Positions 19,991 through 61,950 of a DNA stretch of 64,000 nt are shown in pieces. Each line of letters begins with the position of its first letter. Within the stretch, counting starts at the first letter, position 1. The stretch comes from a virus: IMG/VR virus record IMGVR_UViG_3300034358_000044, positions 96,001-160,000 of that record; one strand, given 5' to 3'. Under the pieces are notes generated by a model. That model ran no database searches, was not told the DNA's origin, and saw only the letters and a list, made by a program, of their open reading frames with translations. The position numbers and the translations under genes are program-made.

Positions 19991-22507
19991 TCAGTCCTCG
20001 ACCACTTCTCCTCTCGCGGGGAGAGCAGCGAATGCGATGTTGTAGGCCTCCTCTACGGAGGGTGGAAGAGTGTCTGGTACCCTCATGGGCTTCACGATTT
20101 GGTAGGGGTAGTTCCACTCCTTCAGACTTCTCTTGAGCGAGCCCAGCATCCTCTTGAAGGAGGGGACCATCCAATCGTCGAAGACGATCATGATGGGATC
20201 CTTCTTGCCCGGTCTCTCGCGCTGGATGCGCCCCATCGACTGCTGGAGAGCAATCTTCGAGCGGAAGGGGGTCAGCCAGAAGAGGGTGTCGAGCCGGTCA
20301 TCGTCCACTCCAGTGGACCCGAGCTTGGCGATGGCGAAGCAGATGTTGCTGTCCCGAAGGACGTCCATGCGCGTCGTCCTGTCCGTCTCCCCCACGATGA
20401 GGGCAGACCCAGGGAACATTGCGTGGAAGAGCTTGAGCTGGTCCTTGGAGTGAGAGAGGCACAGGACCTTTCTGCCAGCCTCTACAGCCGCCTTGATGCT
20501 GTGGTAGCGGTAGATGTTGCCCGCCTTGTTCCTACCCAGAGCGGTTCGTAGGAGGGAGATGTTGGTGGTCCCGTTGAGCTCGCTCTCCGCAGAGTTCATC
20601 ACCGTAGGTGTCTGCTGGATGAAGATCTTCGGAATCAAGTCCTGTTGAAGGTCCGTGTAGAACGGCTCCCCCAAGTGGTACCGGTAGATGGGGTCCAGCC
20701 CGTCCTCTCTCCGCACGGTGGCGGTGAGGCCGATGCGGTCTCCGTAGAAGGGGGAGGCGGTGAGGCTAAACTTCGGAGCCCCAATCTGGTGGACCTCGTC
20801 GTAGATGACGAGTCCGAAGTACCTGAACACTTCCTCAGGTACGGAGCCGCTGTCGATCCGCATCCAGAGAGTGGTGACGAGAGCTAAGGTGATGGGCTTG
20901 GCCCAGTTGAAAACTGGTCCCTGAATCAGCCCCATCTCCCCCTCAAAGCTCAGCCCCTTCACGATGCCCTTGTCGGGGTTGCCGTAAATCGACTCCTTCC
21001 ACTGCTCAAGAATGCCACCATCTGGTACAATGACGAGAGTAGGCACTCCCTTCTGGGCAACCTTCTTGAGGGCGAGGCGGGTGTTGTGGGTGGGGATGTA
21101 GTCCTTTGCGAGAAAGAGATGGTCTGGACTATCTACTGAGATGCAGGTGGCAAGGCCTTTTCCTTGGAAGATAACGGACTCTACAGCACGGTACGGTTCT
21201 CTCTGCCTTGAGGGTGGCAGCTTCTCCAGTTTTCGAGAGAGCCTGAAAAGGGGCATCCCCTTCGGCAGCTTTATGAGGAGTCTGAAACTGGGGAACTCTT
21301 TCCCGTTGCAGGTCGTGATTCGGTGCTGCCTAGTGCAGGTACCCCCTAGAGACAAAACCATGTCGGTCATGTCGTCTGCGAGTTGAGTTGACACAGTGGC
21401 ATACTCTGCTGCTCCTGCAGCAGTCGGACTGCCGTCAGTGTCGAGTAACCCTTGAATGACTGCAAGTCTGTCCCAACTACTGGAGTACTTGTACAACGGA
21501 GGAACGAACTTATAGTGTGCCGTGTGCCCCATGAGGCCAAGCTTCTGAAGAAGAACTGGAAGCCTGGACTCTTTCTGCGTCTGAGCATCACTATATGACA
21601 TCGAGATTCGATACGTCGTCGCCCTTCCAGAGTGCCTACCCGTAACCACCATGAAACGGTGAAGTGGTGGTAGTTTCATGAAGGACAACATCTCGCCGTC
21701 CATTGTAGTGAACTCAACGATGTTCGGTCTGGAGAGATGCCCATCTCCCAGAAGTGCTCCCAACGTATATGGGTCTACTTCAAGGTCCCCAGGCTGCCAC
21801 TCTACTGGAGCTATGGTTGGGAGATAGAAGAGGCGTCCTGCTGCTCCTTGGAGCGGCTTCTGAAGAAGGTCCTTCGTAGTGAGTGTTACAGTTGGCTTGC
21901 CACGGGTCCTCCTCAGAACGAAATTCCACTGATGGTCTGCATCGCAATCTAGATGTGTACCATCAGTGAAGGACACTCTGTAGATGTCCCTCTCGCCTTG
22001 AGGAAAGACTCCGACGACCTTGTAGGACCTACCATTGGTCCCTACTACTTGGTCCTCCATCGTCACCTGTTCGATGGGTATGAACCCTCTGGCTGTAAGG
22101 ACGTTCTGTCCGTGAGCCAGTGCTTTGCCTTTCCCGCAGCCCAGGTTGAGGATGCCATTGTCGTTGAGGGCTAAAGCATGCCACGCCTTCTCCTGCTCCT
22201 CATCACGAGGAACGACGTGATCCTCGAAGACGACCTTCTGGAACTCCGGGCGCAAGTCGATGAAGGGGAACTTGTACCTGGGGTAGTGTGAGGCGGGGAT
22301 GAACTCTCGTGGGCATACGAGATGGTGTTGCGTCTCGTGCCACATGCTCATCTTCACCTGTGCGACTTCACCCTGTTGATCTTTGCCATTCACAAGGAAC
22401 TCAAGGGCCCGCTTGACCGGCTCCGTCCGAATCTGTGACTTCGGAAGCCAGAGCCGATCAGCGAGGTACGCCTTTGAGGGATCCTTGGGGACGTAGAGCA
22501 AGTTCAT
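19991..22507 (-). CDS. SF2 helicase (XPB/UvsW-like) interrupted by an intein
   Basis: GCGKGK|intein|T, YDEVHQ, IGLTATVRRED, LGSTGVD, QQSMGRIQR. Confidence 0.9.
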   Translation of the reverse strand: MNLLYVPKDPSKAYLADRLWLPKSQIRTEPVKRALEFLVNGKDQQGEVAQVKMSMWHETQHHLVCPREFIPASHYPRYKFPFIDLRPEFQKVVFEDHVVPRDEEQEKAWHALALNDNGILNLGCGKGKALAHGQNVLTARGFIPIEQVTMEDQVVGTNGRSYKVVGVFPQGERDIYRVSFTDGTHLDCDADHQWNFVLRRTRGKPTVTLTTKDLLQKPLQGAAGRLFYLPTIAPVEWQPGDLEVDPYTLGALLGDGHLSRPNIVEFTTMDGEMLSFMKLPPLHRFMVVTGRHSGRATTYRISMSYSDAQTQKESRLPVLLQKLGLMGHTAHYKFVPPLYKYSSSWDRLAVIQGLLDTDGSPTAAGAAEYATVSTQLADDMTDMVLSLGGTCTRQHRITTCNGKEFPSFRLLIKLPKGMPLFRLSRKLEKLPPSRQREPYRAVESVIFQGKGLATCISVDSPDHLFLAKDYIPTHNTRLALKKVAQKGVPTLVIVPDGGILEQWKESIYGNPDKGIVKGLSFEGEMGLIQGPVFNWAKPITLALVTTLWMRIDSGSVPEEVFRYFGLVIYDEVHQIGAPKFSLTASPFYGDRIGLTATVRREDGLDPIYRYHLGEPFYTDLQQDLIPKIFIQQTPTVMNSAESELNGTTNISLLRTALGRNKAGNIYRYHSIKAAVEAGRKVLCLSHSKDQLKLFHAMFPGSALIVGETDRTTRMDVLRDSNICFAIAKLGSTGVDDDRLDTLFWLTPFRSKIALQQSMGRIQRERPGKKDPIMIVFDDWMVPSFKRMLGSLKRSLKEWNYPYQIVKPMRVPDTLPPSVEEAYNIAFAALPARGEVVED
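21083..22123 (-). mobile_element. class 3 intein with LAGLIDADG endonuclease, 347 aa, in helicase Walker A
   Basis: starts with Ala (ALAHG); block B DADHQW, block F ATCISV, block G IPTHN/T (W-C-T triplet); GALLGDG and QGLLDTDG motifs. Confidence 0.9.
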
Positions 22508-32220: not shown

Positions 32221-35200
32221 ATGGCTGACACCCAGACGCCTGAGCATTCTTTTGAAGTTCTGAAGACGAATACGCTCAAGGCGATTCAGTCCTACTTTCC
32301 CTACGAAGGTCGCAAGCAGCGTCTCGTAGTCGAGAACCTTCGAGTTGATGACCACCTCTCCTCGGACGACATCGGCAGTCAGTCGGACGCCAAGGACAAA
32401 GAAGGTACTTGGGGCTGCCCCATCAAGGCGGACGTCAAGCTCATCGATGTTGCAACCGGCAAGGTCATCGACACCAAGAAGGGCACAACCCTCGCTCGCC
32501 TTCCCAAGCTCACCAACAGGTACGGCTACATCGTCGGTGGGAACGAGTACCAAGTCGATCACCTCTTCCGGCTGAAGTCCGGGGCCTACACTCGCGTTCA
32601 GGACAATGGTGACCTGGAGACCGAGTACAACATGAAGAAGGGTATCAACGGTCGCGGCTTCTCCGTGAAGCTCGACAGGTTGAAGAAGACCTTCGATCTC
32701 AAGTTGGAGAACACTCACGTCCCATTGTACCCGGTTCTCAAGTCGATGGGAGTGTCAGACGACCAGCTTCAGGAGCAGTGGGGCAAGGAGATCTTCGAGG
32801 CCAACAAGCCGAAGAACGATGCTCGCTTCCACTCTGCCCTCAAGAAGTTCTGGGACAAGACGAGCGAGGAGGGTGCTGCGGCTCCTACAGATTCGGCGGC
32901 TCTGGCGCAGCACGTCATCAACATCTTCGACCAGACTGCCATCCACCCAGACTCGACCAAGATCACTCTGGGGCAGTCCTTCCACAAGGTTGACGGGCAA
33001 GCCCTGGCCTTGGGAGCCATGAAGGTGTTGGGTGTTTCACGTGGAACACTCAAGCCCGATGACCGAGACAGCCTGGCCTTCAAGGAGGTTGCCTCCATAG
33101 AGGACTTCATCCCGGAGAAGATTGAGCGCAACGCCAAGTCCATCAAGGGACGTCTGCGCTCCATGGTGGAGAACAAGAAGACCATCAGCGAGATTCTCTC
33201 TCCTGACCTCTTCAACAAACCCATCAGGGAGTTTTTCTCCAAGGGTGGTGGAGTCTGCGAACGCTCGGACCAGACGAACCCGCTCCAGATGCTGTCCGCC
33301 AACAGGAAGACGACTCTGATGGCAAAGGACTTCGGCGGTATCAAGAGCGACCAGACCCTCACCCCTGAGATGAAGGTGGTCAACGCGAGTCACTTCGGCT
33401 TCTTGGATCCGATGCACACTCCAGAGTCGGAGAAGACCGGCATCACTCTTCACCTGGCCGCCAATGTGCGCAAGGTGGGAAAGGACTTGGAGGCTCCGGT
33501 CTTCAACACGCATACAGGCAAGGAGGAGTACCTCAAGGTTGCTGACTTCCACAGCGCCATGGCCGTCCTGCCTGACCAGGTGAAGTGGGTTGGTGGAAAG
33601 CCTGTCCCTATCTCCCACGATGTGAAGGTGAAGCTCCCCAATGGGGAAATCGCTGTGCGTCCCTACAAGGATGCTCAGTACGTCATGCCCTCCTCAAAGG
33701 GTCTCTTCAACTACGCCTCGAACATGGTCCCGTTCCTGCCATGCAACAACGGCAACCGTGTGTCGATGGCGGACAAGCAGATGGAACAGGCCATCGGTCT
33801 GAAGCACCGCGAAGAGCCTCTGGTGCAGACTAAGACCGACTCGCTCGACCCCGAACACACCTTCGAGAAGCTGGTGGGTCACTTCACAACGGCTCGGTCT
33901 CCAGTCGAAGGAAAGGTCATCTCCATCAAGGATGGGATGATTCACGTCCAAGGGAAGGACGGCAAGACGGAGGTTCACCTCTACAACCACTTCCCCACCA
34001 ACGATCCCAAGGGAATGCTGCACTCTACTCCACTCGTGCAGGTTGGGGATGCAGTGAAGAAGGGGCAGGTTCTCGCTGACTCGAACTACACGAAGAATGG
34101 GACGCTCGCCACTGGCACCAATCTTCGAGTCGGCTACGTCCCCTACAAGGGCTACAATTTCGAAGACGGCATCGTCATCTCGGAGTCTGCCGCGAAGAAG
34201 CTCACCAGTGAGCACCTCTACAAGAAGAACGTAGAGATTGACCCGGACTCGGACCACATCTCCAAGGACAAGTTCCGCGCCTACTCCCCAGTCAAGGCTT
34301 CCGCGATGACCAAGGAGCAGTGGGACAGCATCGACGACGACGGAGTCATCAAGCCAGGGACCCGGGTCCTCCCTGGGCAAATCATGGTGGCGGCCATCGG
34401 TAAGAACGTGGCTACCAAGCTGACCCACTCATGGGGAGCTCTCGGGAAGCGCGCCATCAAGCCCTACAAGGACAAGAGCTTGGTCTGGGACGAGGACCAT
34501 GTCGGCGTTGTGACGAAGGTCGTGAAGGAGTCGGGTGGGCGTGGGGTGAAGGTCTACGTGAAGACCGAGGAGTCTGCACTCATCGGTGACAAGATGTCGG
34601 GGCGCCACGGCAACAAGGGTATCATCACCCAGATTCTGCCTGACCACGAGATGCCTTTCACCACGGATGAGAAAGGGGAACGTCAACCTCTCCAGGTCCT
34701 CCTCAATCCGTCAGGTGTTCCTACCCGCATGAACGTAGGGCAGCTACTAGAGACGGCAGCAGCGAAGATTGCCGAGAAGACAGGTAAGCCCTACATCGTC
34801 AACAACTTCGCAGGCCCAGGTCACGACTACCGTCAGCAGGTGCTGGATGACTTGAAGAAGCACGGCCTCAAGGACGAAGAACACGTCTTCGATCCCAATG
34901 ACCCGAAGCGGTCCATCGGGTCGGTGTTGGTCGGGCATCAGTACATGTTGAAGATGGTGCAGCAGGTCGAGAAGAAGCTCACTGCGCGCGGTGGTGGGAC
35001 CGACGTGCAGGGGAAGGCACTGGCCTACGACTCCGACATGCAGCCCACCAAGGGCGGTGAGCGTGGTGGTCAGGGCTTCGGGCAGTTGGAGATGTACTCC
35101 CTGCTTGGCCATGATGCGCGCCACAACATCCGCGAGATGGCGACCTACAAGTCGGACATGCAGGATGCCAACTTCTGGTCGATGGTGCAGAACGGGAAAG

Positions 35201-38200
35201 AGCCACCACCCCCAGTGCCGTCGTTCGCCTACAACAAGTTCGTGGCCATGCTGCGTGGAGCTGGACTCAACGTCACCAAGGAAGGCACTGGAGTCCGCCT
35301 TGTTCCGATGACGAACAAGGAGATTCTCCACCAGGCAGGGAATGGTCACAACCAGATCAGCGATGCCTCCAAGACGCTGCTCTCGAAGAACTTGAAGCCT
35401 GTGCCAGGGGGGCTCTTCGACCCCTACCTCACTGGTGGTATCGGTGGTGACAAGTGGTCCTACATGAAGCTGTCGGAGCCAGTTCCAAATCCGATGTTCT
35501 GTGGGGAGAATGTGAAGCCGGGTCCAGTGCCTGTGCTTCTCGGACTGAAGATTCAAGAGCTCGATGAGGTGATGCACGGCAAGCGCACCATCGACGGGAA
35601 GACTGGTGGGCATGCTGTCGAGGCCGCCCTCAAGAAGGTGGACGTCGATAAGGAGATCACGAAGCTTCGGACGGACCTTCCTTCCCTCAAGGGTTCGACC
35701 CTGGATCGGAGCAACAAGAAGTTGAAGTACCTCCTTGCCCTCAAGGACCAAGGCCTCAAGCCGCACGAGGCCTACATGATGCACAACATCCCCATCCTCC
35801 CGCCGAAGTTCCGCCCTGCAACGGCGACCCCTTCTGGTGATGTTAGCTACGCCCCCATCAACGGTCTCTACAAGAACATCTCCCTCATCAACGATGAGCT
35901 GAAGAACTTCGACAGCAAGACGTATTCGGAGGAGCACAAGGAGCCGTTGCGGTTGCAGCTCTGGGACTCCGTGAAGGCTCTTCAAGCGGTGGGCAATTAC
36001 AAGCCGGTCTATGACATGGACCAGAAGGGAGCTCGTGCGCTCCCAGGTATTCTCGACATCATCGGCCATGGAGGCATTGAGGGGCAGCCAAAGGAGGGCT
36101 ACTTCCAGAGCAAGCTGGTGAAGCGCAAGCTCGATCTCTCCATGCGCTCGACCATCGTGCCCGAGCCCAACCTCCACATCGACGAGATGGGGGTTCCCAA
36201 GGGAGCGGCGATGGAGTCCTACAAGCCGTTCGTTGTGGCGCAGCTCCATCGATGGGGGCAGACCGCCTTGGCTGCTCAGGACGAAATCAAGAGGGACACT
36301 CCGCTGGCCACCAAGGCACTGGAGAAGGTCTTCGAGGACCGCCCCATCCTCATCAAGAGAGATCCGGCTCTCCACAAGTTCTCGGTCATGGGGTTCAGGC
36401 CTAAGCTGGTAAGTGGCAAGGCCATTCAGATCCACCCTTTGGTGTGCGGTGGGTTCAACGCCGACTTCGATGGTGACACCATGGCCGCTACCATTCCCCT
36501 CTCCAAGGCGGCCGTGGAGGAGGCCAAGAAGATGTTCCCGTCCAAGAACCTCTTCAACCCAGGAAGTGGAAGGGTGATGTACGTCCTGGACCAGGAACAA
36601 ATTCTTGGTCTCCACTATATGACTCAATGGGGGAAGCAGACCGACAAGAAGTTTGGAACGATCGATGAGGTGAAGAAGGCACTCTCGAAGCACGAGATCG
36701 AGCCCACCGACATCATCTCCCTCAAGGATGCCCAGAAGCCGACCACTGCCGGTCGCTTGATGTTCGCAGCGACTCTTCCTTCCGGCTTCTCGGAGAACAA
36801 GGACATCCTGCACAACCCCAAGCTGGACATCACCAAGAAGTTCCTGGCTGACAACATCGCCACCAATCTGGCGAAGAACCACGTCAACCACTACGCCACT
36901 GCCATCGATGGGTTGAAGGATCTGGGTAACGAGTGGTCCTACAAGCTTGGAGTCTCTTTCGGCTTGAAGGACTTCGCCGTTCTTCCTGAGCGGGATGCCA
37001 TCCTCAAGGACGCTACCAAGGATGCGGCACACGCGACCAAGACGTTGAAACCGGGGACGGAGCTCGACAAGAGGCTCATCGAAATCTACTCCAAGGCAAC
37101 GGACAAGATTGACGCTGCAGCCAAGTCCAGCCTTGGTCGAAGTGACAACCGACTTGGACGGATGGTCTTCACCGGAGCTCGTGGAAAGTCGGAACAGCTC
37201 CGCCAGATGATTGCTGCACCGATGTTGGTGCAGGATGGTCTCAATAGGACTCTCACGACTCCAGTGATGAGGTCCTTCTCGGAGGGACTGGACCTGGGTG
37301 AGTACTGGTTGACGCAGAGCGGGGCTCGTAAGGGCACTCTTCAGCGTTCATCGGGTACTAGAGATCCGGGTGCGGCCTCCAAGGAGATTCTCAACTCGAC
37401 GATGTCCACCCTCATCACTTCCAATGACTGCAAGACGACGCAGGGCATCTTGCTGGACGTGAGTCACCCCGACATCCATGACAGGTTCCTAGCAGCCCCC
37501 TACAAGCTGAAGGACGGGGTGACCGTGAGAGAGGGGACACTCCTCACTCCTGAAATCACCGGCAAGCTGCGTGATCAGAAAGTCCTGGTGCGTTCCCCGC
37601 TCAAGTGTCAACACGGAGACGGCATCTGTGCCAAGTGTTTCGGCCTGAACGAGCGTGGGGTTCCACACGATGTTGGAACCAGTATCGGTGTTCTCGCTGG
37701 TCAGTCATTGGGAGAACGTGCGACCCAGCTTTCCATGAACGCCTTCCACACAGGAGGAGTCGCTTCTGGTGCCGGTTCTGAATCAGTGGACATGTTCACA
37801 CGACTCAAGCAAATCCTGGGCATGCCGAAGAAGCTGAAGAACCAAGCTACCATCTCTCAATCCTCTGGGAAAATTACCCAAGTCTCCAAGGATGCCGCAG
37901 GCGGAGTGAACATCACCATCAATGGAATTGGCCACAAGGTAGATACTGCCCTTGTGAACCCGAAGATGGTAGTAGGTACTGAGGTGAGGAAGGGGGAGGC
38001 TCTCTCTGGAGGACACATCAACCCTCTCCATCTTCTCAGCGTCACCAAGGATATTCATGCGGTCCAGAACTACATGACCAACGAACTTGATACCCTCTAC
38101 AACAAGGAAGGTGTCCGCCGACGCAACGTGGAAGTCGTCGTCCGTGCGCTCACCAACCTCACCAAGGTGAAGGACCCAGGCCACAGCGACTTCATTCATG

Positions 38201-38493
38201 GAGATGTTGCTCCCCGCTCGGTGGTTGAAGAGTACAACCGGACGCTCTCCAAGGGGCACAGGCCCATCGAGCACGAGCCCATTCTGAAGGGCATCACGGA
38301 GATACCGTCTCAGTCTTCCAACTGGCTGGGCCGGCTCAACTTCCAGGAGCTCCATTCCACGGTGCAGCAGGCGGCGGCCATGGGATTGAAGTCGGACCTT
38401 CACGGGAGCCACCCCATCCCCGGTATGGCCAGAGGGAGTGAGTTCGGTCTTCCACCTCCTGAGTTGAAGGCCAAGAAGCCCTACGTCTACTAG
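32221..38493 (+). CDS. rpoBC: single-chain fused beta-beta' multisubunit-type RNA polymerase, 2090 aa
   Basis: beta: GYNFEDG, GDKMSGRHGNKG, LNPSGVPTRMNVGQ, GGQGFG; beta': PILPPKFRP, KRDPALH, NADFDGD, RSPLKC...ICAKC, TQLSMNAFHTGG; no stop between the halves. Confidence 0.97.
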   Translation: MADTQTPEHSFEVLKTNTLKAIQSYFPYEGRKQRLVVENLRVDDHLSSDDIGSQSDAKDKEGTWGCPIKADVKLIDVATGKVIDTKKGTTLARLPKLTNRYGYIVGGNEYQVDHLFRLKSGAYTRVQDNGDLETEYNMKKGINGRGFSVKLDRLKKTFDLKLENTHVPLYPVLKSMGVSDDQLQEQWGKEIFEANKPKNDARFHSALKKFWDKTSEEGAAAPTDSAALAQHVINIFDQTAIHPDSTKITLGQSFHKVDGQALALGAMKVLGVSRGTLKPDDRDSLAFKEVASIEDFIPEKIERNAKSIKGRLRSMVENKKTISEILSPDLFNKPIREFFSKGGGVCERSDQTNPLQMLSANRKTTLMAKDFGGIKSDQTLTPEMKVVNASHFGFLDPMHTPESEKTGITLHLAANVRKVGKDLEAPVFNTHTGKEEYLKVADFHSAMAVLPDQVKWVGGKPVPISHDVKVKLPNGEIAVRPYKDAQYVMPSSKGLFNYASNMVPFLPCNNGNRVSMADKQMEQAIGLKHREEPLVQTKTDSLDPEHTFEKLVGHFTTARSPVEGKVISIKDGMIHVQGKDGKTEVHLYNHFPTNDPKGMLHSTPLVQVGDAVKKGQVLADSNYTKNGTLATGTNLRVGYVPYKGYNFEDGIVISESAAKKLTSEHLYKKNVEIDPDSDHISKDKFRAYSPVKASAMTKEQWDSIDDDGVIKPGTRVLPGQIMVAAIGKNVATKLTHSWGALGKRAIKPYKDKSLVWDEDHVGVVTKVVKESGGRGVKVYVKTEESALIGDKMSGRHGNKGIITQILPDHEMPFTTDEKGERQPLQVLLNPSGVPTRMNVGQLLETAAAKIAEKTGKPYIVNNFAGPGHDYRQQVLDDLKKHGLKDEEHVFDPNDPKRSIGSVLVGHQYMLKMVQQVEKKLTARGGGTDVQGKALAYDSDMQPTKGGERGGQGFGQLEMYSLLGHDARHNIREMATYKSDMQDANFWSMVQNGKEPPPPVPSFAYNKFVAMLRGAGLNVTKEGTGVRLVPMTNKEILHQAGNGHNQISDASKTLLSKNLKPVPGGLFDPYLTGGIGGDKWSYMKLSEPVPNPMFCGENVKPGPVPVLLGLKIQELDEVMHGKRTIDGKTGGHAVEAALKKVDVDKEITKLRTDLPSLKGSTLDRSNKKLKYLLALKDQGLKPHEAYMMHNIPILPPKFRPATATPSGDVSYAPINGLYKNISLINDELKNFDSKTYSEEHKEPLRLQLWDSVKALQAVGNYKPVYDMDQKGARALPGILDIIGHGGIEGQPKEGYFQSKLVKRKLDLSMRSTIVPEPNLHIDEMGVPKGAAMESYKPFVVAQLHRWGQTALAAQDEIKRDTPLATKALEKVFEDRPILIKRDPALHKFSVMGFRPKLVSGKAIQIHPLVCGGFNADFDGDTMAATIPLSKAAVEEAKKMFPSKNLFNPGSGRVMYVLDQEQILGLHYMTQWGKQTDKKFGTIDEVKKALSKHEIEPTDIISLKDAQKPTTAGRLMFAATLPSGFSENKDILHNPKLDITKKFLADNIATNLAKNHVNHYATAIDGLKDLGNEWSYKLGVSFGLKDFAVLPERDAILKDATKDAAHATKTLKPGTELDKRLIEIYSKATDKIDAAAKSSLGRSDNRLGRMVFTGARGKSEQLRQMIAAPMLVQDGLNRTLTTPVMRSFSEGLDLGEYWLTQSGARKGTLQRSSGTRDPGAASKEILNSTMSTLITSNDCKTTQGILLDVSHPDIHDRFLAAPYKLKDGVTVREGTLLTPEITGKLRDQKVLVRSPLKCQHGDGICAKCFGLNERGVPHDVGTSIGVLAGQSLGERATQLSMNAFHTGGVASGAGSESVDMFTRLKQILGMPKKLKNQATISQSSGKITQVSKDAAGGVNITINGIGHKVDTALVNPKMVVGTEVRKGEALSGGHINPLHLLSVTKDIHAVQNYMTNELDTLYNKEGVRRRNVEVVVRALTNLTKVKDPGHSDFIHGDVAPRSVVEEYNRTLSKGHRPIEHEPILKGITEIPSQSSNWLGRLNFQELHSTVQQAAAMGLKSDLHGSHPIPGMARGSEFGLPPPELKAKKPYVY

Positions 38494-38505
38494 TTGGAGT
38501 TCTTT

Positions 38506-39585
38506 GTGGCCCCTATCAGCTCCAAGACTCGCGCCGCATATGTCCACCAGGCGAAGATCATCGACGTCAACATCGCTAACTGGACCGTCTCCGTGGCGAC
38601 CCAGTTCGCTGACAAGCCGTTGACTGACATCCCCTTCGCGGTCCCGTACCTTCACCCCAACAACGGAGAGGGCATCTACTTCATGCCCGAGGTTGGGTCG
38701 GTCTGTTGGCTCTGTGAGCCCTCTGATGGGAACAAGCCCTTCGTGTTGGCGTGGGCTCCTCCCTCCGTAGATGGCACTGGGCAGTTCCGAGCTCATCGCC
38801 AGGATTTGAGCCCAGGAGACATCTGGCTGGGGACTCGTGACGAAAACTTCCTGATTCTTCGAAGAGGTGGGGTCGTCCAGATTGGTGGGACAGGTCTCTG
38901 TCAAAGGCTGTTCCTGCCCATCAACAACACCATCAAGGACTTCTGTGAGAACTACTCGCTCAACACCATCGGGGGCGACTTGGAGTGGGTCGTCAAGAGG
39001 GTGGAAACAGACACGACGGGAGACCGTCCTGCTCTTCTGACGTTGAGCGCCAAGGCTTTTGCGAATGACGAGCAGCCCATCGCCACTCTCAAAATCGGTT
39101 CCCACGATGGAGACAAGAAGACTATTCTATCCCTTGCGATTCATGCGTCAGGTGCGCAGGGAGCTGATACCGTCATCAGTCTCAAGATGACCAACGAAGG
39201 AAACGTCATCTGGGAAGTTGAGAAGGACGTGAGCTTGACCATCAAGGGGAAGGTGACCGTTGATGCCAAGGGCGAGGTGAAGTTCACTGCTGGCAACAAG
39301 TTCACTCTCGACGTGAAAGACAAGTTGGCCCTGAAGGCGAAGGGCATTGACGTGGACGCAGGTGGGAAGAACATCGACGTCAAGGCGGACAAGGTGACGG
39401 TCGCAGCCGAGGTCATCGTGAACAGCGGAGTCAAAGGGGTGTGGCTTGCTGATGACGCCTTCATCTCTTGGATCGCCACGCACACTCACACGTCAGCGCC
39501 TACTGGAAGTCCCACTTCTCCTGCGGTTCCTCCGTATTCTGCAGTTCCAGGGACAAGTTACGCCACGATGTTGAAGGCTAAGTGA
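38506..39585 (+). CDS. baseplate central spike (P2 gpV / Mu gp45-like)
   Basis: GTG 38506 with GGAG RBS; OB-fold-like N-terminus (YFMPEVGS), beta-helix-like repeats, terminal HTH (HxH) motif. Confidence 0.75.
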   Translation: MAPISSKTRAAYVHQAKIIDVNIANWTVSVATQFADKPLTDIPFAVPYLHPNNGEGIYFMPEVGSVCWLCEPSDGNKPFVLAWAPPSVDGTGQFRAHRQDLSPGDIWLGTRDENFLILRRGGVVQIGGTGLCQRLFLPINNTIKDFCENYSLNTIGGDLEWVVKRVETDTTGDRPALLTLSAKAFANDEQPIATLKIGSHDGDKKTILSLAIHASGAQGADTVISLKMTNEGNVIWEVEKDVSLTIKGKVTVDAKGEVKFTAGNKFTLDVKDKLALKAKGIDVDAGGKNIDVKADKVTVAAEVIVNSGVKGVWLADDAFISWIATHTHTSAPTGSPTSPAVPPYSAVPGTSYATMLKAK

Positions 39586-45847: not shown

Positions 45848-46159
45848 TCACGGTGATTCGTTCTGCTCGTTTCCCATCTTGCGTTTCACGATGACTTGTA
45901 CGACGAGGGAGGTAGGTTTGATGGAGACCGCATTTCCCGGTACACAGTTGTTCTTGGTGAGCCACTTCTGGAAGATGTTCCATATCTCAAGAGCCACTTT
46001 CCCGTTGACTTTCTCTGGCCAGTAGAGCTTCAGCCCGTAAACGAGTGGGTTGACAGTGCCCACGACTTCATAGACCATCTCTTGGTCCAGGGCGCCTCCT
46101 GTTGACTCGCAGAATGCAGGAACCCACGCCAGAGGCGGTGGCACTCTTGAGGGCTTCAT
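45848..46159 (-). CDS. hypothetical protein
   Basis: start moved to ATG 46159 (GGAG RBS); shares CATG with the terminase start. Confidence 0.55.
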   Translation of the reverse strand: MKPSRVPPPLAWVPAFCESTGGALDQEMVYEVVGTVNPLVYGLKLYWPEKVNGKVALEIWNIFQKWLTKNNCVPGNAVSIKPTSLVVQVIVKRKMGNEQNESP

Positions 46160-47951
46160 GACAGTAGTCTCCAGTGAAGAGTACAAGAGACTCGACAACG
46201 ACGTCGTCATCTCTGAGAGCGGGCAGCCAGAGCCGAAGGAAGAATGGGACTACGAGCCAGTAGTTGAGGTGGACCCGGATGAGCTGGAACTGCAGAAAGG
46301 CAGCGAGCTCGTCTACATCTCTCCCTCCCGCTTTGTCGAGTTCGCCATCACGGTTCCCGACAAGGTGCTGCAGAAGCGAGTGCCCTTCTCCTTCGAGAAC
46401 CGCCGCTACCTCCGTCATCCCTACGACACCGCCTCCAAGCGCGTCCTCCTGAAGTGTGGTCGGCAGGTCGAGAAGAGCACGATGTTGGGGAACAAGTGCC
46501 TCTCGTACTGCGCCATCTACTCTGCCTTCAACGTCCTCTACGTTTCCCCCACCAACCTTCAGACGAAGACCTTCAGTCAGGACCGCTTGAAGGAGCCGGT
46601 GGAGACATCAGAACGATTGAAGGCTTGGACGACGTCGAAGCTGAGCGACAACGTCTTCTCCAAGAAGTTCGTCAACCGGAGCCAGATAACGCTCCGCTAC
46701 GCCTACCACAACGCCGACCGGGTTCGTGGCATCCCTGCTGACATGGTCCTCATTGATGAGGTCCAGGACATCATCACGGACAACCTTCCGGTCATCGAGG
46801 AGTGCGCCTCCCACTCCGAGTTCAAGCTCTTCCTGTACTCAGGGACGCCCAAGTCTCTGGACAACCCTCTGGAGAAGTACTGGACGGAGCAGTCGACCCA
46901 GAACGAGTGGGTGGTGCCCTGTGAGCACCACGGCCTCCCCAAGGATCCCAGCACCTGGTTCTGGAACATCCTCAGCGAAGAGAACATGGGCAAGGAAGGT
47001 CTCATCTGTTCTCGCTGTGGGAAGCCCATCTACTCGATGCACCCACACTCCCAGTGGGTGTCGATGAACCCGAACGTCTACACCCGACTGAAGCAGCCCT
47101 TTGAGGGCTACCGGGTACCGCAGCTCATGGTGCCTTGGCTTGACTGGCACGAGCTCCTCGACAAGCGTACCAAGCAGTCCCAGACGGTCTTCTTCAACGA
47201 GGTGTTGGGGCTCTCCTACGACTCCGGTACTCGCCCCCTCACTCGGCAGGACGTCGTCGATAACTGCCAGCCTGGGCTCTTGATGACGGAGTCCAACCTC
47301 ACCGACATCAAGCGACACATGGGTACGGCTTCTCCCATCTTCGCCGGCATCGACTGGGGTACTGGTGAGAATACGTACACCGTCCTCACCCTGGGCGGCT
47401 ACATCAACGAGTACTTCACCATCTTCTACATTCACCGTTTCGAGGGGCCTGAGATGGAGCCAGAGGTGCAGCTCGACCTCATCGAGACCATCATCAAGAA
47501 CTGGAACGTCAAGGTGGTGGGGACAGACTACGGCGGCGGCTTTGATCGCAACGATCGTCTCCAGCGGAAGTTCGGAAGGGACCGAATCTGGAAGTACCAG
47601 TACTCGACCCCTTCCCAGAAGGTGAAGTGGGAGGACAAGTTCCACCGTTTCATCGTCCACCGCACCGAGGTGATGTCGGACATCTTCAACGCCATCAAGC
47701 GGAGGAACGTCTTCCGCTTCCCTGACTGGCAGCAATTCGAGGACCCCTTCTCCAAGGACCTCCTCAACATCTTCTCGGAGTACAACGAGCAGGCCCGGCA
47801 GATTCAGTACAAGAAGTCGCCTGACGTGACGGACGACTCCTTCCACTCCATCCTGCTCTGCTTCCTTGTCTCGATGCTGCGCCACCCCAGGCACGATGTT
47901 CTGAACCCTCAGGCGCGCACGTCTGCTGGTGCAATGGACATTGAGGACTAA
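46158..47951 (+). CDS. terL: terminase large subunit (lambda GpA-like)
   Basis: KCGRQVEKST, LYVSPT, LIDEVQD, SGTPKS, WVVPC...CSRCG, GIDWG nuclease motif. Confidence 0.85.
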   Translation: MTVVSSEEYKRLDNDVVISESGQPEPKEEWDYEPVVEVDPDELELQKGSELVYISPSRFVEFAITVPDKVLQKRVPFSFENRRYLRHPYDTASKRVLLKCGRQVEKSTMLGNKCLSYCAIYSAFNVLYVSPTNLQTKTFSQDRLKEPVETSERLKAWTTSKLSDNVFSKKFVNRSQITLRYAYHNADRVRGIPADMVLIDEVQDIITDNLPVIEECASHSEFKLFLYSGTPKSLDNPLEKYWTEQSTQNEWVVPCEHHGLPKDPSTWFWNILSEENMGKEGLICSRCGKPIYSMHPHSQWVSMNPNVYTRLKQPFEGYRVPQLMVPWLDWHELLDKRTKQSQTVFFNEVLGLSYDSGTRPLTRQDVVDNCQPGLLMTESNLTDIKRHMGTASPIFAGIDWGTGENTYTVLTLGGYINEYFTIFYIHRFEGPEMEPEVQLDLIETIIKNWNVKVVGTDYGGGFDRNDRLQRKFGRDRIWKYQYSTPSQKVKWEDKFHRFIVHRTEVMSDIFNAIKRRNVFRFPDWQQFEDPFSKDLLNIFSEYNEQARQIQYKKSPDVTDDSFHSILLCFLVSMLRHPRHDVLNPQARTSAGAMDIED

Positions 47952-55923: not shown

Positions 55924-56406
55924 ATGCCAGTTCCCAACTTCGAGCTCATCACTGAGCTTCAGACCCTGACCCGCCGCGACTTCCCAGTCGAAGACGTGAC
56001 GATCCTCAAGCCCATCTCTTCTCTTCCTCTGGTTGAGGGGGAGTGGTTGGAGCTGAACGCCAACTATCACCTCCAGCGCGGAACCGGTGCTTCGCCGGCT
56101 TCGTTCATCGTCCACACCGAGCGCGGTCGGTACGACACGCAGGCCATCGGCAAGACGAACGTCCTCTTCGCCGGTCAGTACGAGGGCGAGACGACCATGT
56201 TCGAGGGGGTCATCGGCTCCTTCGTTCCGGGACACATGGTGGTCCTGGCCCCCATCACTGCAGGTCCCAACACCGGCCGCGTCGGCATCAAGGACGCTGG
56301 TGCAGGTGGGGCGGCTGCAGGTTCCGTGGTGGTCGGTGTCGTCACCAAGGTGAACGGTTCGTCCGGCAAGGTCCGCTTCCTCCACATGAGCACCGGCAAG
56401 GTCTAA
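55924..56406 (+). CDS. probable capsid decoration / minor capsid protein
   Basis: 160 aa, beta-rich, directly upstream of the MCP. Confidence 0.55.
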   Translation: MPVPNFELITELQTLTRRDFPVEDVTILKPISSLPLVEGEWLELNANYHLQRGTGASPASFIVHTERGRYDTQAIGKTNVLFAGQYEGETTMFEGVIGSFVPGHMVVLAPITAGPNTGRVGIKDAGAGGAAAGSVVVGVVTKVNGSSGKVRFLHMSTGKV

Positions 56407-56443
56407 GCGGCGCTCTCCCACACTCAACCAAGGACAAAAGACA

Positions 56444-57565
56444 ATGAGCACCGTTCCCGCAAAGGTTCTGAACGATCTCTTCTTCGAAAAGATCGGATCT
56501 GCAGAGGGCAAGGACAAGATCGCCGAGTTCGGCGGTACGTACATCCGTGACCGTCTGCGTGAAGTCTCGTTCGCCAGGAAGATCATCCCGCCCACCCCGG
56601 TGCAGCGCAGCGAGCTGCAGCGTTCGGTGAACCACGACACCCTGGTGAAGATCGTCGACATCGAGCCCGACTCGAAGGCGATGAGCCTCACCTTCCGTGG
56701 CCAGCCCACGGCCCGGTTCATTCGTGCGCCGCGCTTCGAGATCCCCTTCTTCACCATCTCCTCGGAGAAGTTCGAGAAGACGGAGCAGGAGCTCCTGGCG
56801 TACGAGATGCCCATCACCAAGATCATCGAGGAGAACTCGGTCAAGGACATCCAGGCGATCGAGGACCGGCAGTTCCTCATCTACGTCGAGGCCTGCATCC
56901 AGGCGTACCAGCTCGACAGCAACAACGGAGTCGCGACCTCCTTCAACAGGACCCGCGTCCTGGCCGGTACGGTCGTCAGCTCCTCCGTGGTCAAGAGCGA
57001 GGGTGCTCTGGCTGCGTCGGCCGACAACTTCATCGTCCACCCCCTGCTGAAGCCCGACTTCATCAAGCTCAAGCAGGTCATGCACCGTCGCTTCCTGCGT
57101 GCTGAGCGCATCCTCATCACCGAGCCCGACTACGACAACCTCTCGGCCTGGACCATCCAGGACGTGTGGAGCATCGCTGCCGAGACGGCGACCGAGGGCT
57201 GGAAGGCCAACACGGTGGTCGGCCTCAAGATCATCCGCACCATCAAGACGAACATCCTCCGCGAGGGCAACATCTACTGCTTCGCGGCTCCCGAGTTCTT
57301 CGGCCGGTTCTACATCCTGAACCAGACGAAGTTCTACATCGACAAGATCGCCAACCTCATCACCTGGCAGTCGTGGGAGGACATCGGGATGGGCTTCGGC
57401 AACATCGCCGCCGTGGTCAAGCTGGAGCTCTACTCCGGCTCGGTCACCCCGGGTGCCACCGACACCGGCTTCTGGGCCGAGCTGCCCAAGGACGAGGACG
57501 ACCTGTCGCCCATCAACAACAGGGCCGACAAGGGCCTGACCACTCCGGAAGTCGACCAGTTCTGA
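56444..57565 (+). CDS. major capsid protein (HK97-fold, inferred)
   Basis: 373 aa, extreme GC3 bias, follows protease/scaffold/decoration genes, strong terminator downstream. Confidence 0.75.
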   Translation: MSTVPAKVLNDLFFEKIGSAEGKDKIAEFGGTYIRDRLREVSFARKIIPPTPVQRSELQRSVNHDTLVKIVDIEPDSKAMSLTFRGQPTARFIRAPRFEIPFFTISSEKFEKTEQELLAYEMPITKIIEENSVKDIQAIEDRQFLIYVEACIQAYQLDSNNGVATSFNRTRVLAGTVVSSSVVKSEGALAASADNFIVHPLLKPDFIKLKQVMHRRFLRAERILITEPDYDNLSAWTIQDVWSIAAETATEGWKANTVVGLKIIRTIKTNILREGNIYCFAAPEFFGRFYILNQTKFYIDKIANLITWQSWEDIGMGFGNIAAVVKLELYSGSVTPGATDTGFWAELPKDEDDLSPINNRADKGLTTPEVDQF

Positions 57566-57587
57566 GCTGACTCCAGTTCGGATGGGC

Positions 57588-57624
57588 AAGGGGGAGGGAG
57601 GAAACTCCCTCCCCTTTGTTCTTT
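57588..57624 (+). terminator. rho-independent terminator after the MCP
   Basis: AAGGGGGAGGGAG-GAAA-CTCCCTCCCCTTT then GTTCTTT. Confidence 0.9.
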
Positions 57625-57643
57625 GAGTAGTAGAAAGGGAACC

Positions 57644-59703: not shown

Positions 59704-61950
59704 ATGCACGTCGCCACGCTCACTGCCTTCGAGGACGAGCTTGAGAAAGAGGCAGATGTCATCACGCCCCTCAAGGCGCATCAGCAGAGGGTCGTCGATC
59801 GCATTCAGCAGGAGGACCAGCCCGGTCTTGTGGTGGCCCACGGACTGGGTTCTGGCAAGACGCTGACGTCCATTGCCGCCCAAGACGCATTGGGGATGCA
59901 TGCGGACGTCGTTGTTCCTGCCGCCCTACAGGCGAACTACAAGAAGGAAATCAAGCAGCACACCAAGGGCAAGGTTCCCAAGGCGGCCATTCAGTCGATG
60001 CAGAACGTGGCCACCAAGAAGACGCAGTTGAAGCGCCCGATGATGGTAGTGGACGAGGCCCACCGCATGAGGGATCCGTCCTCCAACACCTTCCAGACGC
60101 TGAAGGGGACGGAAGCCAAGAAGCGACTACTCCTCACTGGGAGCCCATTCTACAATCACCCTTCGGACATCGCCCCACTCATCGACCTGGCCGCCAATGC
60201 CAAGGTGCTACCATTCGACAAGGATGAGTTCACTCGGGCCTATATTGCCGAGAAGACCATCAACCCCAGTTTCGGGCAGAGTCTGGCCAACATCTTTCGT
60301 TCTGATGAGAATAAGGTGAGGCCCGGTTTCGTGCCCATTCTCTACGAGAAGAAGGCTCCTGAACTACGAGCCGCCTTCAAGAAGTGGGTCGACTACCATC
60401 CAGGCAGCAAGGATGCAGAGGGCTTCCCGGATGTCGAGAAGAGGGACGTCCCCATCGAGATGACGAAGGAACAGCTTCGCGTCTACGATACCCTCATGGA
60501 CAGGGCGCCCGCTTGGGTCGCCGCCAAGGTGAAGCGCGGATTGCCTCCCAGCAAGCAAGAGGCCTCGCAGCTCAACGCCTTCCTCACGGCTTCTCGGCAG
60601 GCCACCAACACCACCGCCCCCTTCCAGCAGGACCAGAAGAACATCCAGGACCCGAAGATTCAAGCCGCCTTCTCCAGCCTCAAGAAGACCCTGGAGGGCA
60701 ACCCGCGAGCTCGGGCAGTGGTGTATTCCAACTTCCTGGATGCAGGCATCAATCCCTACAAAGCCAAGCTGGACGAAGCCAAGATTCCCTACGGGGAGTT
60801 CACTGGGGCCATGTCCAAGAAGAAGAGGGAGGAGATAGTCCAGCAGTACAACGCAGGTAAGCTGCGAACGCTTCTCCTCTCCAGTGCAGGTGGGGAAGGT
60901 TTGGACTTGAAGGGCACCAGACTGATGCAGATTCTGGAACCTCACTGGAACGAAGAGAAGCTGAAGCAGGTCCATGGGCGTGGGGCTCGCTACATGAGCC
61001 ACTCCGATCTACCTCCTGAAGAGCGAAAGCTCCTCATCGAGAACTACATCGCCAAGCGCCCCCAGGGACTGCCGACGTCGGTCTACAACAAGATCACGGG
61101 TCGAGCCCCGGACAAGTCAGTGGATGAGTACTTGACCCAGATGTCCGGCGACAAGGAGAAGCTCATCGAACAGTTCCGTGCGCTCCTCCCGAATGGGAAA
61201 GAGAAGAAGTCTGCTGCCGAGAAGAAGAAGGAACTCTTCGTCACCGACGAGAACACTCAGCGAGGCAAGACCACTGAGGTATCCAGAGAGCTTGCCAAGT
61301 CCCTGAAGCCGAGGGCGGCAGCCTTTGCTACCTTCACTGCCCCATTGGCTCTCACCGGGTTTCGTCTCGCTCGGGGGCTAGGGCCGAACATGAGTACGAA
61401 GTCACAGGCCCTTGCTGGAGGTGTTGGGGCGGCTCTCGGTGGTGCTCTGGGACACTTCATTGCCCATAATCAGACCGCCAACATCATCAACGACAGCAAG
61501 GCCATTGCCCGTCAAGCTCTTCGAACCGCCTCCAAAGAGAACAGCCTTCGAGAGGAAGCTGGGAAGATGAACTGGGGTGATGTTGCGCGTTCCTCCAGGA
61601 ATCGCGTCATCAGTGATGTGGCCACCTCCGCTCCAGTACTCACTCGACTAGCGACCCAGCACATCCAGGGAAAGGGGCTTAAATTCCCCACGACGGACCT
61701 GGGGCTCATGGCGGCTGGAAACATCCTAGGCTCCATCGGATCCGGCTACCTAGAGAAGTACAAGAAGATGATTGCCGTGAATGAGCTCGACAACGTCAAA
61801 GCTCGTATGGCGGAGCAGGACGCTACGCGCCTCAAGAGACTTCGTAACCAGGTAGCCCAGCTGGAGACTCGGGTCGAGGGGGACGGATGGAACGCCCCCA
61901 AGAAGGACGACGCTCCAGTTGAGAAGAAGAAGGGCAAGCTGGACTGGTAG
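59704..61950 (+). CDS. leader-bearing SF2 (SNF2-like) helicase/translocase with a Gly/Ala-rich C-terminal domain
   Basis: MHVATLTAFEDELEKEA; HGLGSGKT, DEAH, LLTGSP, GGEGLDL, QVHGRGAR. Confidence 0.85.
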   Translation: MHVATLTAFEDELEKEADVITPLKAHQQRVVDRIQQEDQPGLVVAHGLGSGKTLTSIAAQDALGMHADVVVPAALQANYKKEIKQHTKGKVPKAAIQSMQNVATKKTQLKRPMMVVDEAHRMRDPSSNTFQTLKGTEAKKRLLLTGSPFYNHPSDIAPLIDLAANAKVLPFDKDEFTRAYIAEKTINPSFGQSLANIFRSDENKVRPGFVPILYEKKAPELRAAFKKWVDYHPGSKDAEGFPDVEKRDVPIEMTKEQLRVYDTLMDRAPAWVAAKVKRGLPPSKQEASQLNAFLTASRQATNTTAPFQQDQKNIQDPKIQAAFSSLKKTLEGNPRARAVVYSNFLDAGINPYKAKLDEAKIPYGEFTGAMSKKKREEIVQQYNAGKLRTLLLSSAGGEGLDLKGTRLMQILEPHWNEEKLKQVHGRGARYMSHSDLPPEERKLLIENYIAKRPQGLPTSVYNKITGRAPDKSVDEYLTQMSGDKEKLIEQFRALLPNGKEKKSAAEKKKELFVTDENTQRGKTTEVSRELAKSLKPRAAAFATFTAPLALTGFRLARGLGPNMSTKSQALAGGVGAALGGALGHFIAHNQTANIINDSKAIARQALRTASKENSLREEAGKMNWGDVARSSRNRVISDVATSAPVLTRLATQHIQGKGLKFPTTDLGLMAAGNILGSIGSGYLEKYKKMIAVNELDNVKARMAEQDATRLKRLRNQVAQLETRVEGDGWNAPKKDDAPVEKKKGKLDW

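Follow-up and report, generated by a model that had tools for sequence, protein, structure and literature searches.

According to reviews up to 2026, large phages bring either split polymerases that lack sigma or, instead of a polymerase, just sigma factors that act on the host's enzyme. The RNA polymerases (RNAPs) of phiKZ-like and AR9-like phages are relatives of β and β' that are free of alpha and omega; they consist of four or five polypeptides, occur as two paralogous sets, one of which is packed into the virion for the early genes, and have no sigma70 homolog. In crAss-like phages (phi14:2 gp66 type), both catalytic barrels reside in one large polypeptide that is delivered by the virion. 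Its sequence shows no recognizable similarity to cellular β/β' (PMC7481178). The uncultured tailed phages of the mReC lineage (Weinheimer and Aylward 2020, PMC7481178) possess β and β' that can be aligned with the cellular subunits and have a branching point outside the bacteria; gp23-type capsids (PF07068) and T4-type terminases (PF03237) were reported for most members, while neither a fusion nor a sigma factor is mentioned in that paper. In Salmonella phage Arash (OQ632216.1, PMC10585845; Gp206 and Gp216) and the Vibrio phages D69, D181 and D148, β and the N-terminal portion of β' form one chain, and the portal gene is located just upstream. Fusions of rpoB and rpoC also exist in bacteria (Helicobacter, Paceibacterota), where the C-terminus of β is likewise joined to the N-terminus of β'; these have arisen independently and are nested among their bacterial kin. 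Genomes with a fusion of the Helicobacter type retain alpha and omega as well as the complete zinc domain. In the literature outside subscription journals, we found no description of a β-β' fusion in a phage.

The polymerase gene described here, P0001, resides in a window of 64,000 nucleotides (positions 96,001 to 160,000 of IMG/VR record IMGVR_UViG_3300034358_000044) within the genome of an uncultured phage of 195,735 bp (~196 kb). It is the sole RNAP gene, as no second RNAP set was found in the whole phage genome. The following features of the gene are relevant (window positions):

32221..38493, + strand: single-chain β-β' RNA polymerase gene P0001, a single ORF of 2,090 aa (Pfam; PDB bacterial β' chains, E 1e-112)
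32221..35283, + strand: β module, residues 1-1021, comprising the two lobes, the flap and the second catalytic barrel, which contains K791 and K799
35284..38490, + strand: β' module, residues 1022-2090 (Rpb1_1 to Rpb1_5), following β almost without a linker
35395..35472, + strand: site of the deleted N-terminal β' zinc-binding domain, residues 1059-1084 (KPVPGGLFDPYLTGGIGGDKWSYMKL; alignment gap)
35836..35970, + strand: β' clamp helices, residues 1206-1250, predicted sigma docking site (complex model)
36457..36477, + strand: catalytic NADFDGD motif, residues 1413-1419 (translation, conservation)
37429..37638, + strand: second zinc site, C1737, C1796, C1803 and C1806 (matching its E. coli β' counterpart in the alignment)

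The preliminary description had read β and β' motifs in this one ORF, and the order of Pfam domains, Rpb2_3, Rpb2_6 (E 3e-58) and Rpb2_7 followed by Rpb1_1 to Rpb1_5 (Rpb1_2, E 6e-27), bears this out. The open frame has a length of 2,106 codons, and its ATG start is consistent with relatives of 2,088-2,109 aa. In pairwise alignment the C-terminal motif of β is directly joined to the equivalent of residue ~15 of E. coli β', and the β' module covers E. coli β' residues 167-950 and 1150-1347 with SI3 missing. While the chain of the Arash and Vibrio phages is cut in β' (near P0001 residue 1,518) to yield proteins of 1,525 and 606 aa, that of P0001 is uncut. Structure prediction, one of the checks named in the preliminary description, gave a confident model of β (AF2, residues 1-1200, pLDDT 87.6) that can be aligned over its whole length to bacterial and plastid β chains (residues 1-~998, Z 34, 896 aligned residues, rmsd 4.2). 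The enzyme had also been described as compact. It is indeed 659 aa shorter than E. coli β and β' together (1342+1407 = 2,749 aa), but the β module is structurally complete and matches minimal bacterial β subunits over its full length; most of the deficit corresponds to the missing E. coli-specific inserts SI1, SI2, β 1126-1208 and SI3, plus the zinc domain.

The catalytic residues are conserved. D1415, D1417 and D1419 of the catalytic motif are invariant among 57 diverse homologs, as are K791 and K799 of the β barrel. Of the two zinc sites of bacterial β', only the second is found, in agreement with the initial reading that the N-terminal four-cysteine site is missing and the C-terminal one kept: a 32-residue gap precisely covers Cys70/72/85/88 of E. 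coli β', the first domain is deleted in all 97 fused homologs, none of which has a conserved cysteine at this site, and C1737, C1796, C1803 and C1806 are the only invariant cysteines across the same 97 proteins. Residues 1059-1084 are modeled as coil with good confidence. P0001 hence encodes a bacterial-type RNAP core that retains the full set of catalytic and structural core modules in conserved form. Judged by sequence and structural models, the gene is genuine and looks functional, and it represents a little-studied variant among the phage multisubunit RNA polymerases. Readings of P0001 as a crAss-type or YonO-type enzyme were ruled out because it strongly matches the cellular β and β' families in Pfam.

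Phylogenetic analysis, similarly named as a check, grouped the fused family with Arash and Vibrio phage D69 in a clade to which none of the 27 bacteria sampled across many phyla belongs; in this quick tree, which was calculated without an archaeal or eukaryotic outgroup, all 27 bacteria fall on the same side of a branch (SH-aLRT 100). The RNAPs of Arash and Vibrio D69/D181/D148 belong to the same clade (SH-aLRT 100) at 29-33% identity to P0001 (Arash ~33%), and the sigma, SNF2 helicase, capsid and terminase genes of Arash are homologous to those of the phage studied here. The β' of the T4-like Rhizobium phage RHph_TM30 is placed outside the fused family. A Paceibacterota MAG (CPR; L066) also carries a β-β' fusion in one ORF, which, in contrast to the P0001 family, is nested among its bacterial kin. 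At 50% identity, the fused form is represented by over 150 clusters, on contigs of ~170-220 kb. No match to the gene was obtained by megablast against 50,697 phage records, relatives in isolate phages being detectable at the protein level only, with at most 33% identity. Among 185,579 species genomes scanned, ordinary rpoBC was the only match (26-31% identity), and neither a prophage copy nor a pointer to the host emerged. In contrast to the far more divergent enzymes of the phiKZ and AR9 type, this polymerase is encoded by one gene as one chain with strong similarity to bacterial RNAPs and a sigma70-family partner.

A deeply branching lineage of multisubunit RNAPs in tailed phages, mentioned in the preliminary description, does exist as mReC, and P0001 shares with it the alignability to COG0085/COG0086, an NADxDGD motif and a clade position outside the sampled bacteria. 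The capsid and terminase families of mReC, however, were not encountered here: PF07068 gave no match in the phage genome at E<=1, and the large terminase passes GpA_ATPase while reaching 16 bits with PF03237 (cut-off 22). This comparison is a weak test since mReC capsids were found in only 8 of 97 contigs (PMC7481178). The comparison with mReC was based on its published description, and the two sets may overlap.

Taken together, we favor, with a probability of roughly 0.55, the reading that P0001 specifies an active single-chain core which would form a holoenzyme with the phage's own sigma factor, would be made late and packaged, and would work free of alpha and omega. It draws on sequence, on structural models and on analogy to Arash.

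With regard to alpha and omega, the genes reported absent from the window are absent from the whole 195,735-bp genome as well (no match to PF01000, PF01193 or PF01192). In the favored reading, the β-β' fusion would stand in for alpha as a scaffold and make both alpha and omega dispensable. Natural and engineered β-β' fusions of bacteria, such as that of Helicobacter, retain alpha, and the fused chain may accordingly represent the core of a hybrid enzyme whose folding and activity depend on a host alpha dimer and perhaps also on omega. The closeness of the enzyme to bacterial RNAPs (β', E 1e-112; β fold, Z 34) and the occurrence of a fused gene inside an otherwise ordinary bacterial clade, as in the sampled CPR bacterium, are in line with such a hybrid. 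On the other hand, the multisubunit RNAPs of phiKZ and AR9 have neither alpha nor omega and, according to a review, do not stably bind those of the host, and an identity of ~28-31% to every sampled bacterial phylum means that conserved docking of one host's alpha is not assured. We regard the hybrid enzyme as a tentative but quite conceivable alternative to the alpha- and omega-free core.

The absence of a sigma gene holds for the window but not for the genome. A sigma70-family protein of 301 aa is encoded ~38 kb upstream of the window (genome positions 57197-58102), and because of this factor the enzyme should not be considered sigma-less. The protein is homologous to Arash gp10, which passes Pfam Sigma70_r3, as do 15 of the 43 members of the sigma family; the family profile matches RpoS (E 1.3e-11) across regions 2-4, and the best 50 Foldseek matches are all sigma factors. 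Sigma region 2 (PF04542) gave no Pfam match in the whole 195,735-bp genome, and no further sigma was found in it by the family profile; a Sigma70_r4 match at genome positions 21273-21365 (13.8 bits) was dismissed as being under the cut-off. The phage sigma differs from that of Arash by an N-terminal extension of ~50 residues with a leader-like motif.

Structural modeling of the complex suggests that core and sigma would form a holoenzyme in which sigma domain 2 docks on the β' clamp helices. The score of 0.73 (best control, 0.01) was attained in 58 of 80 solved complexes and in 2 of 110 mismatched pairs, and at least 39% of the contacts agree among three runs, with a partner pLDDT of at least 66. 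As docking of sigma to the clamp is a textbook pair, this result may reflect similarity to solved structures. It might alternatively be assumed that the phage sigma works with the core enzyme of the host, while the phage RNAP uses another, unrecognized specificity factor. T4 gp55 and SPO1 gp28 are cited as parallels, phage sigmas being described in reviews as redirecting the host core, and the complex model is unable to distinguish the phage core from that of the host. Yet sigma and fused RNAP apparently occur on common contigs across the family, with at least 14 longest-contig sizes, a proxy for shared contigs, appearing in both match lists, and they also occur together in Arash, whose virions contained both proteins. 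Moreover, the canonical interface was modeled with high confidence on the clamp helices of the phage enzyme. A sigma dedicated to the host core therefore appears improbable to us.

If the sigma directs the phage RNAP to promoters specific to the phage, these are best sought among sites of the form GCAAAAG-N13-TCGGCATAAGG that precede minus-strand (non-structural) genes. One related site lies close to the polymerase gene:

32071..32106, - strand: promoter-like site GTCAACGAAAG-N12-TTGGCATAAGG, pointing away from the RNAP gene (genome-wide motif)

This position is also occupied in two relatives (L013 and L014). Genome-wide, 25 sites show one mismatch or none, and 24 of them are located on the minus strand; the bipartite motif occurs 14 times on the minus and once on the plus strand, with ~1.35 copies expected per strand. 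The phage sigma may recognize the motif. No copy precedes the RNAP or the sigma gene, and inspection of 36 regions upstream of plus-strand genes, based on crude gene calls, revealed no common motif.

The RNAP gene was originally placed among virion genes, which is corroborated by portal, terminase and capsid genes in the window:

27330..29372, + strand: portal gene, 2.8 kb upstream of the RNAP gene (tblastn: Arash gp204, E 9e-76; Vibrio D69 0259, E 4e-79; weak PHROG portal matches; position conserved in relatives)
38494..39585, + strand: candidate baseplate hub/spike gene (gpV/gp5-like), abutting the RNAP stop codon
46158..47951, + strand: large terminase (PHROG 675, E 1e-64; Pfam GpA_ATPase; Arash gp1, E 3e-55)
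56444..57565, + strand: major capsid protein (tblastn with Arash MCP gp226, E 7e-38)
59704..61950, + strand: SNF2-family helicase with the N-terminal leader MHVATLTAFEDELEKEA (Pfam SNF2-rel_dom, Helicase_C), homologous to Arash gp217 (E 3e-78)

The order of portal, RNAP and spike-like gene is conserved in relatives down to 46% identity, which carry a gene of 360-372 aa at the last position. The spike gene previously described as directly following the RNAP gene is thus adjacent to it, while its identity is a lead: the Atlas features link it to Phage_base_V clusters with scores of 0.95-0.96, and PHROG gives a weak match to baseplate assembly (E 4e-4). Pfam and PHROGs yielded almost no usable matches for ~25 neighboring proteins. 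Atlas matches of the 862-aa protein encoded after the spike-like gene were discounted as meaningless because its Atlas model has a pLDDT of 0.37.

Both the RNAP and the sigma gene are located among virion genes, in plus-strand blocks devoid of the motif, which suggests that the two proteins would be synthesized late, packed into the head and injected along with the DNA in order to initiate early transcription. Indirect support comes from Arash: among the virion proteins of this phage the polymerase homolog Gp206 was the most detected (3,516 spectra), above the major capsid protein, and Gp216 (1,210 spectra), the sigma Gp10 (467) and the helicase Gp217 were found as well (PMC10585845). However, 116 of 272 proteins were identified in this preparation, and the ribonucleotide reductases and kinases among them indicate that it was not clean; carry-over is offered as an alternative by the authors (PMC10585845) and may likewise explain the abundance of the polymerase. 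The RNAP might then stay outside the virion, with the host RNAP reading the first phage genes, including those for RNAP and sigma, and the phage enzyme acting on middle and late genes in a way similar to T7 RNAP and the non-virion RNAPs. The position of a gene is by itself no proof of packaging, and the N-terminus of the RNAP, as had been stated before, lacks the 17-aa leader of candidate head-internal proteins, whose motif AFxxELxKIA occurs in at least 12 other proteins of the phage genome. The N-terminus of the phage sigma bears a degenerate copy of the leader with an invariant K17; in the retrieved parts of the Arash and Vibrio D69 genomes the motif was not found. A sigma-70 consensus scan around the RNAP gene revealed a single site (2.5 expected) and none upstream of it. 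Together with the conserved gene order beside the portal and the spectra of the Arash homolog, this makes an unpackaged polymerase rather unlikely in our view, and we keep to packaging as part of the favored reading. A bolder version, a self-contained holoenzyme of two polypeptides without alpha and omega that would enter the capsid via the leader-bearing extension of sigma, be injected and alone start early minus-strand transcription from GCAAAAG-N13-TCGGCATAAGG, is at present doubtful.

With its own core and its own sigma in one genome, the phage probably carries a private transcription machine. The fused lineage thereby combines what large phages were described to bring separately, a near-complete, single-chain core of the bacterial type and a sigma factor, and the family is very large in metagenomes. 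Its branching outside the sampled bacteria bears on the age of viral RNA polymerases. If the enzyme is indeed free of alpha and omega, it would provide a minimal and easily expressed model of cellular-type transcription and a natural test for the roles of alpha, omega and the first zinc domain; a holoenzyme of two polypeptides, if true, would be the simplest sigma-dependent cellular-type RNA polymerase known. With Arash as a cultured relative, the main predictions can be tested now.

The gene at window 32221-38493(+) is a single open reading frame of 2,090 codons, and no second RNA polymerase (RNAP) gene occurs in the whole 195,735-bp source record, an IMG/VR virus that is complete according to CheckV and whose bases 96001-160000 make up the window. 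Pfam places the beta domains Rpb2_3, Rpb2_6 (E 3e-58) and Rpb2_7 within residues 349-981 and, after them, the beta' domains Rpb1_1 to Rpb1_5 at residues 1166-1989, while among solved structures bacterial beta' chains give the top sequence matches (E 1e-112). Beta and beta' are joined seamlessly: the C-terminal motif of beta leads straight to the counterpart of residue ~15 in E. coli beta'. Across 57 homologues, with identities down to 34%, no variation occurs in the NADFDGD motif (residues 1413-1419) or in lysines K791 and K799 of beta. A profile of 97 fused homologues was used to map the protein onto the E. coli subunits.

Segments of the RNAP and their E. coli equivalents (profile mapping)
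RNAP 266-767: E. coli beta 429-931
RNAP 774-857: E. coli beta 1048-1126
RNAP 886-1021: E. coli beta 1208-1339
RNAP 1116-1860: E. coli beta' 167-950
RNAP 1875-2068: E. coli beta' 1150-1347

The E. coli lineage-specific inserts (SI1 region, SI2, beta 1126-1208 and SI3) are absent, and so are the beta' tail and ~70 residues from the N-terminal end of beta'; judged from the alignment, these pieces make up most of the 659-residue shortfall against E. coli beta plus beta'. As the smallest sampled bacterial pair measures ~2,300 aa (stop-to-stop ORF length), the phage enzyme lies merely ~9% below minimal bacterial size, and the term "compact" used in the preliminary description is apt relative to E. 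coli but mostly reflects inserts of the latter. Only four of the nine cysteines (C1737, C1796, C1803 and C1806) are invariant across the 97 homologues, and in the alignment they fall on the second of the E. coli beta' zinc sites; the four cysteines of the first beta' zinc domain fall in a 32-residue alignment gap. The reported beta-beta' fusion, the missing N-terminal zinc site and the retained C-terminal one are thus all borne out. Structure prediction, which had been proposed as a check, likewise supports a bacterial beta fold: AlphaFold2 models residues 1-1200 with confidence (pLDDT 87.6, pTM 0.73), and residues 1 to ~998 of this model superpose on beta chains from bacteria, cyanobacteria and plastids (Z 34, 896 aligned, rmsd 4.2 Å). 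Neither beta lobe is missing, and the first 267 residues, undetected by Pfam, belong to them; helix 733-739, at the mapped position of the flap tip, where sigma-4 docks, is modelled with low confidence.

More than 100 fused homologues (2,079-2,130 aa, 46-82% identity) on contigs of up to ~220 kb were retrieved by a word-indexed search. In an exhaustive HMMER search at least 150 cluster representatives match the beta' half, the 150th still at E 1e-172, and nearly all of these 150 are, judged from length and match position, fused proteins or their fragments. Longer variants owe their size to inteins or homing-endonuclease domains, which sit in conserved motifs close to residues 400, 630, 840 and 990, directly after NADFDGD (~1420) and at FHTGG (~1844). 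Many fused genes carry one to at least five inserts, the insert-bearing homologues including P0012, P0016, P0026, P0042, P0049, P0080, P0086, P0094 and P0337, and one protein reaches 4,739 aa. The nearest isolates are the Vibrio phages D69, D181 and D148 and Salmonella phage Arash (29-33% identity), and bacterial genomes of 185,579 species yielded nothing nearer than ordinary rpoBC (26-31% identity, many phyla). The suggested phylogeny, a quick IQ-TREE analysis (LG+G4, 42 rows, 1,960 columns, SH-aLRT support only, without archaeal or eukaryotic outgroup), sets the family apart from bacteria: one branch (support 100) separates all 27 bacteria, from many phyla, from the rest of the tree, and 12 diverse family members form one group with Arash and D69 (support 100). 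The T4-like Rhizobium phage RHph_TM30 stays outside this group, its beta' sitting on a long branch of its own. The Arash and D69 polymerases also have beta joined to the N-terminal part of beta', with a break in the chain close to position 1,518 of the present RNAP; the fusion is therefore probably older than the whole clade.

A contig of a Candidatus Paceibacterota MAG (DATJQA010000074.1) also has rpoB and rpoC joined, in a 2,284-aa open frame; since it nests among CPR bacteria, this fusion is independent of the phage one. Several phage-labelled records (OR844998.1, OR846602.1, OR847295.1, AGRM01000005.1, CAKLQH020000005.1 and others), with Staphylococcus, Enterococcus, Listeria, Salmonella or Acinetobacter as labelled hosts, match through ordinary bacterial rpoB-rpoC and look like host contigs misfiled as phage.

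The entire genome gave no match to alpha, omega or sigma region 2. Arash gp10, the sigma factor of that phage, passes Pfam Sigma70_r3, and its homologue here is a 301-aa protein encoded at genome positions 57197-58102(+), ~38 kb ahead of the window, amid large structural-type genes that form a block on the plus strand. The protein itself fails Pfam, and 15 of 43 relatives pass Sigma70_r3. Its family comprises 125 matches, many labelled sigma by JGI, and a profile of this family aligns to RpoS from region 2 through region 4 (E 1.3e-11); the best 50 Foldseek matches of its model (pLDDT 78) are sigma factors without exception. From profile and model, the 301-aa protein is predicted to be a sigma factor. 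The preliminary description had recognised no alpha, omega or sigma gene in the window; this applies genome-wide to alpha and omega, but to sigma only within the window. In at least 14 cases the same longest-contig sizes recur in the RNAP and sigma match lists, taken here as a proxy for contigs that the two share. Modelled in complex with this sigma, beta' residues 1022-1480 scored 0.73 (best control 0.01); among solved complexes 58 of 80 attain that mark, and among mismatched pairs 2 of 110. At least 39% of contacts agree between runs, partner pLDDT is at least 66, and the modelled contacts connect clamp helices 1206-1250 with sigma helix 94-112. Because the clamp-sigma interface is textbook, this pass indicates likeness to solved complexes rather than actual binding of the pair. 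It is plausible that the RNAP works without alpha.

The gene follows a conserved order, in which a five-gene block ending in portal precedes the RNAP, a ~360-aa gene and a ~700-860-aa gene. This order around the RNAP is unchanged in three relatives at 82%, 63% and 46% identity, and the assignment to the virion module is therefore correct.

Structural and associated genes in the window
27330-29372 (+): portal gene (Arash gp204, E 9e-76)
46158-47951 (+): terminase
56444-57565 (+): major capsid protein (homologue of Arash gp226, E 7e-38)
59704-61950 (+): SNF2 helicase, leader-bearing

A spurious but longer ORF on the minus strand (56342-58276) covers the capsid gene, so that longest-ORF calling would skip the latter. 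A gene does abut the RNAP stop codon, as described, but its likeness to gpV/gp5 hub-spike proteins comes from language-model features only. A conserved 92-97-aa ORF overlaps the RNAP start in Arash (gp205, L003) and D69 (0260, L002), whereas minus-strand genes occupy its place in the family of this window. The related contig L015 also has an SNF2 helicase near the RNAP; the helicase at 59704-61950 may be a RapA-like polymerase partner.

At least 12 otherwise unrelated proteins of the genome start with an AFxxELxKIA leader of ~17 residues, (M)HxxTLxAFxDELxKIA, among them two portal-block proteins and the SNF2 helicase.

Leader carriers
Window 24985, 26415, 43045, 59208, 59704, 61989, 62825 (+)
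Genome 12612-13366 (-)
Genome 30716, 55159, 55500, 57197, 164589 (+)

The sigma leader is a degenerate copy, ALEWVLGKIAAAS, of which L15 is nearly invariant and K17 invariant in the sigma family. The RNAP bears no leader, as had been noted, and starts with an ordinary beta N-terminus; nor was the leader found in the parts of Arash and D69 examined. This leader may direct proteins to the capsid or serve as a signal for protease processing. In the Arash virion proteome the RNAP protein Gp206 is the top protein (3,516 spectra, more than the major capsid protein), and the second RNAP protein Gp216, sigma Gp10 and helicase Gp217 were likewise detected (PMC10585845). This proteome holds 116 of 272 proteins, ribonucleotide reductases among them, and carry-over was offered by its authors as an alternative (PMC10585845). 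By analogy with Arash, and from the conserved order by the portal and the leader proteins, virion delivery of the RNAP is plausible, with riding into the head on sigma as one possibility.

The 10-mer TCGGCATAAG occurs 12 times in the genome, always on the minus strand, as are 24 of the 25 sites with at most one mismatch, most with a CAAAAG-like element ~17 bp upstream. The full bipartite, promoter-like motif, GCAAAAG-N13-TCGGCATAAGG, has 14 minus-strand copies and one plus-strand copy, against ~1.35 expected per strand (single-base shuffles).

Motif copies in the window
~23176, ~32080, ~44613, ~48495 (-)

The copy at 32071-32106 points away from the RNAP gene, and the motif is position-matched in the related contigs L013 and L014, including the copy beside the RNAP. 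The -10-like hexamer is CATAAG, whose final G (compared with TATAAT) is atypical of housekeeping promoters. A TTCTTAGC-like sequence precedes several copies. The motif is absent ahead of both the RNAP and the sigma gene, and inspection of 36 regions upstream of plus-strand genes, placed by crude gene calls, revealed no shared motif.

The Caudovirales lineage with deeply branching beta and beta' that the preliminary description mentions does exist, namely mReC, the multisubunit-RNAP-encoding lineage (PMC7481178). The gp23-type capsids and T4-type terminases reported for it (PMC7481178) were not found in this genome, and the paper mentions neither fusion nor sigma. According to reviews of 2020, 2021 and 2026, large phages that encode an RNAP lack sigma, and those that encode sigma lack an RNAP; full-text searching outside subscription journals found no description of the fused type. 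The initial observation is confirmed and its interpretation right in part: this well-conserved gene belongs to a large phage lineage of single-chain, sigma-associated RNAPs, of which the literature has hardly any description.
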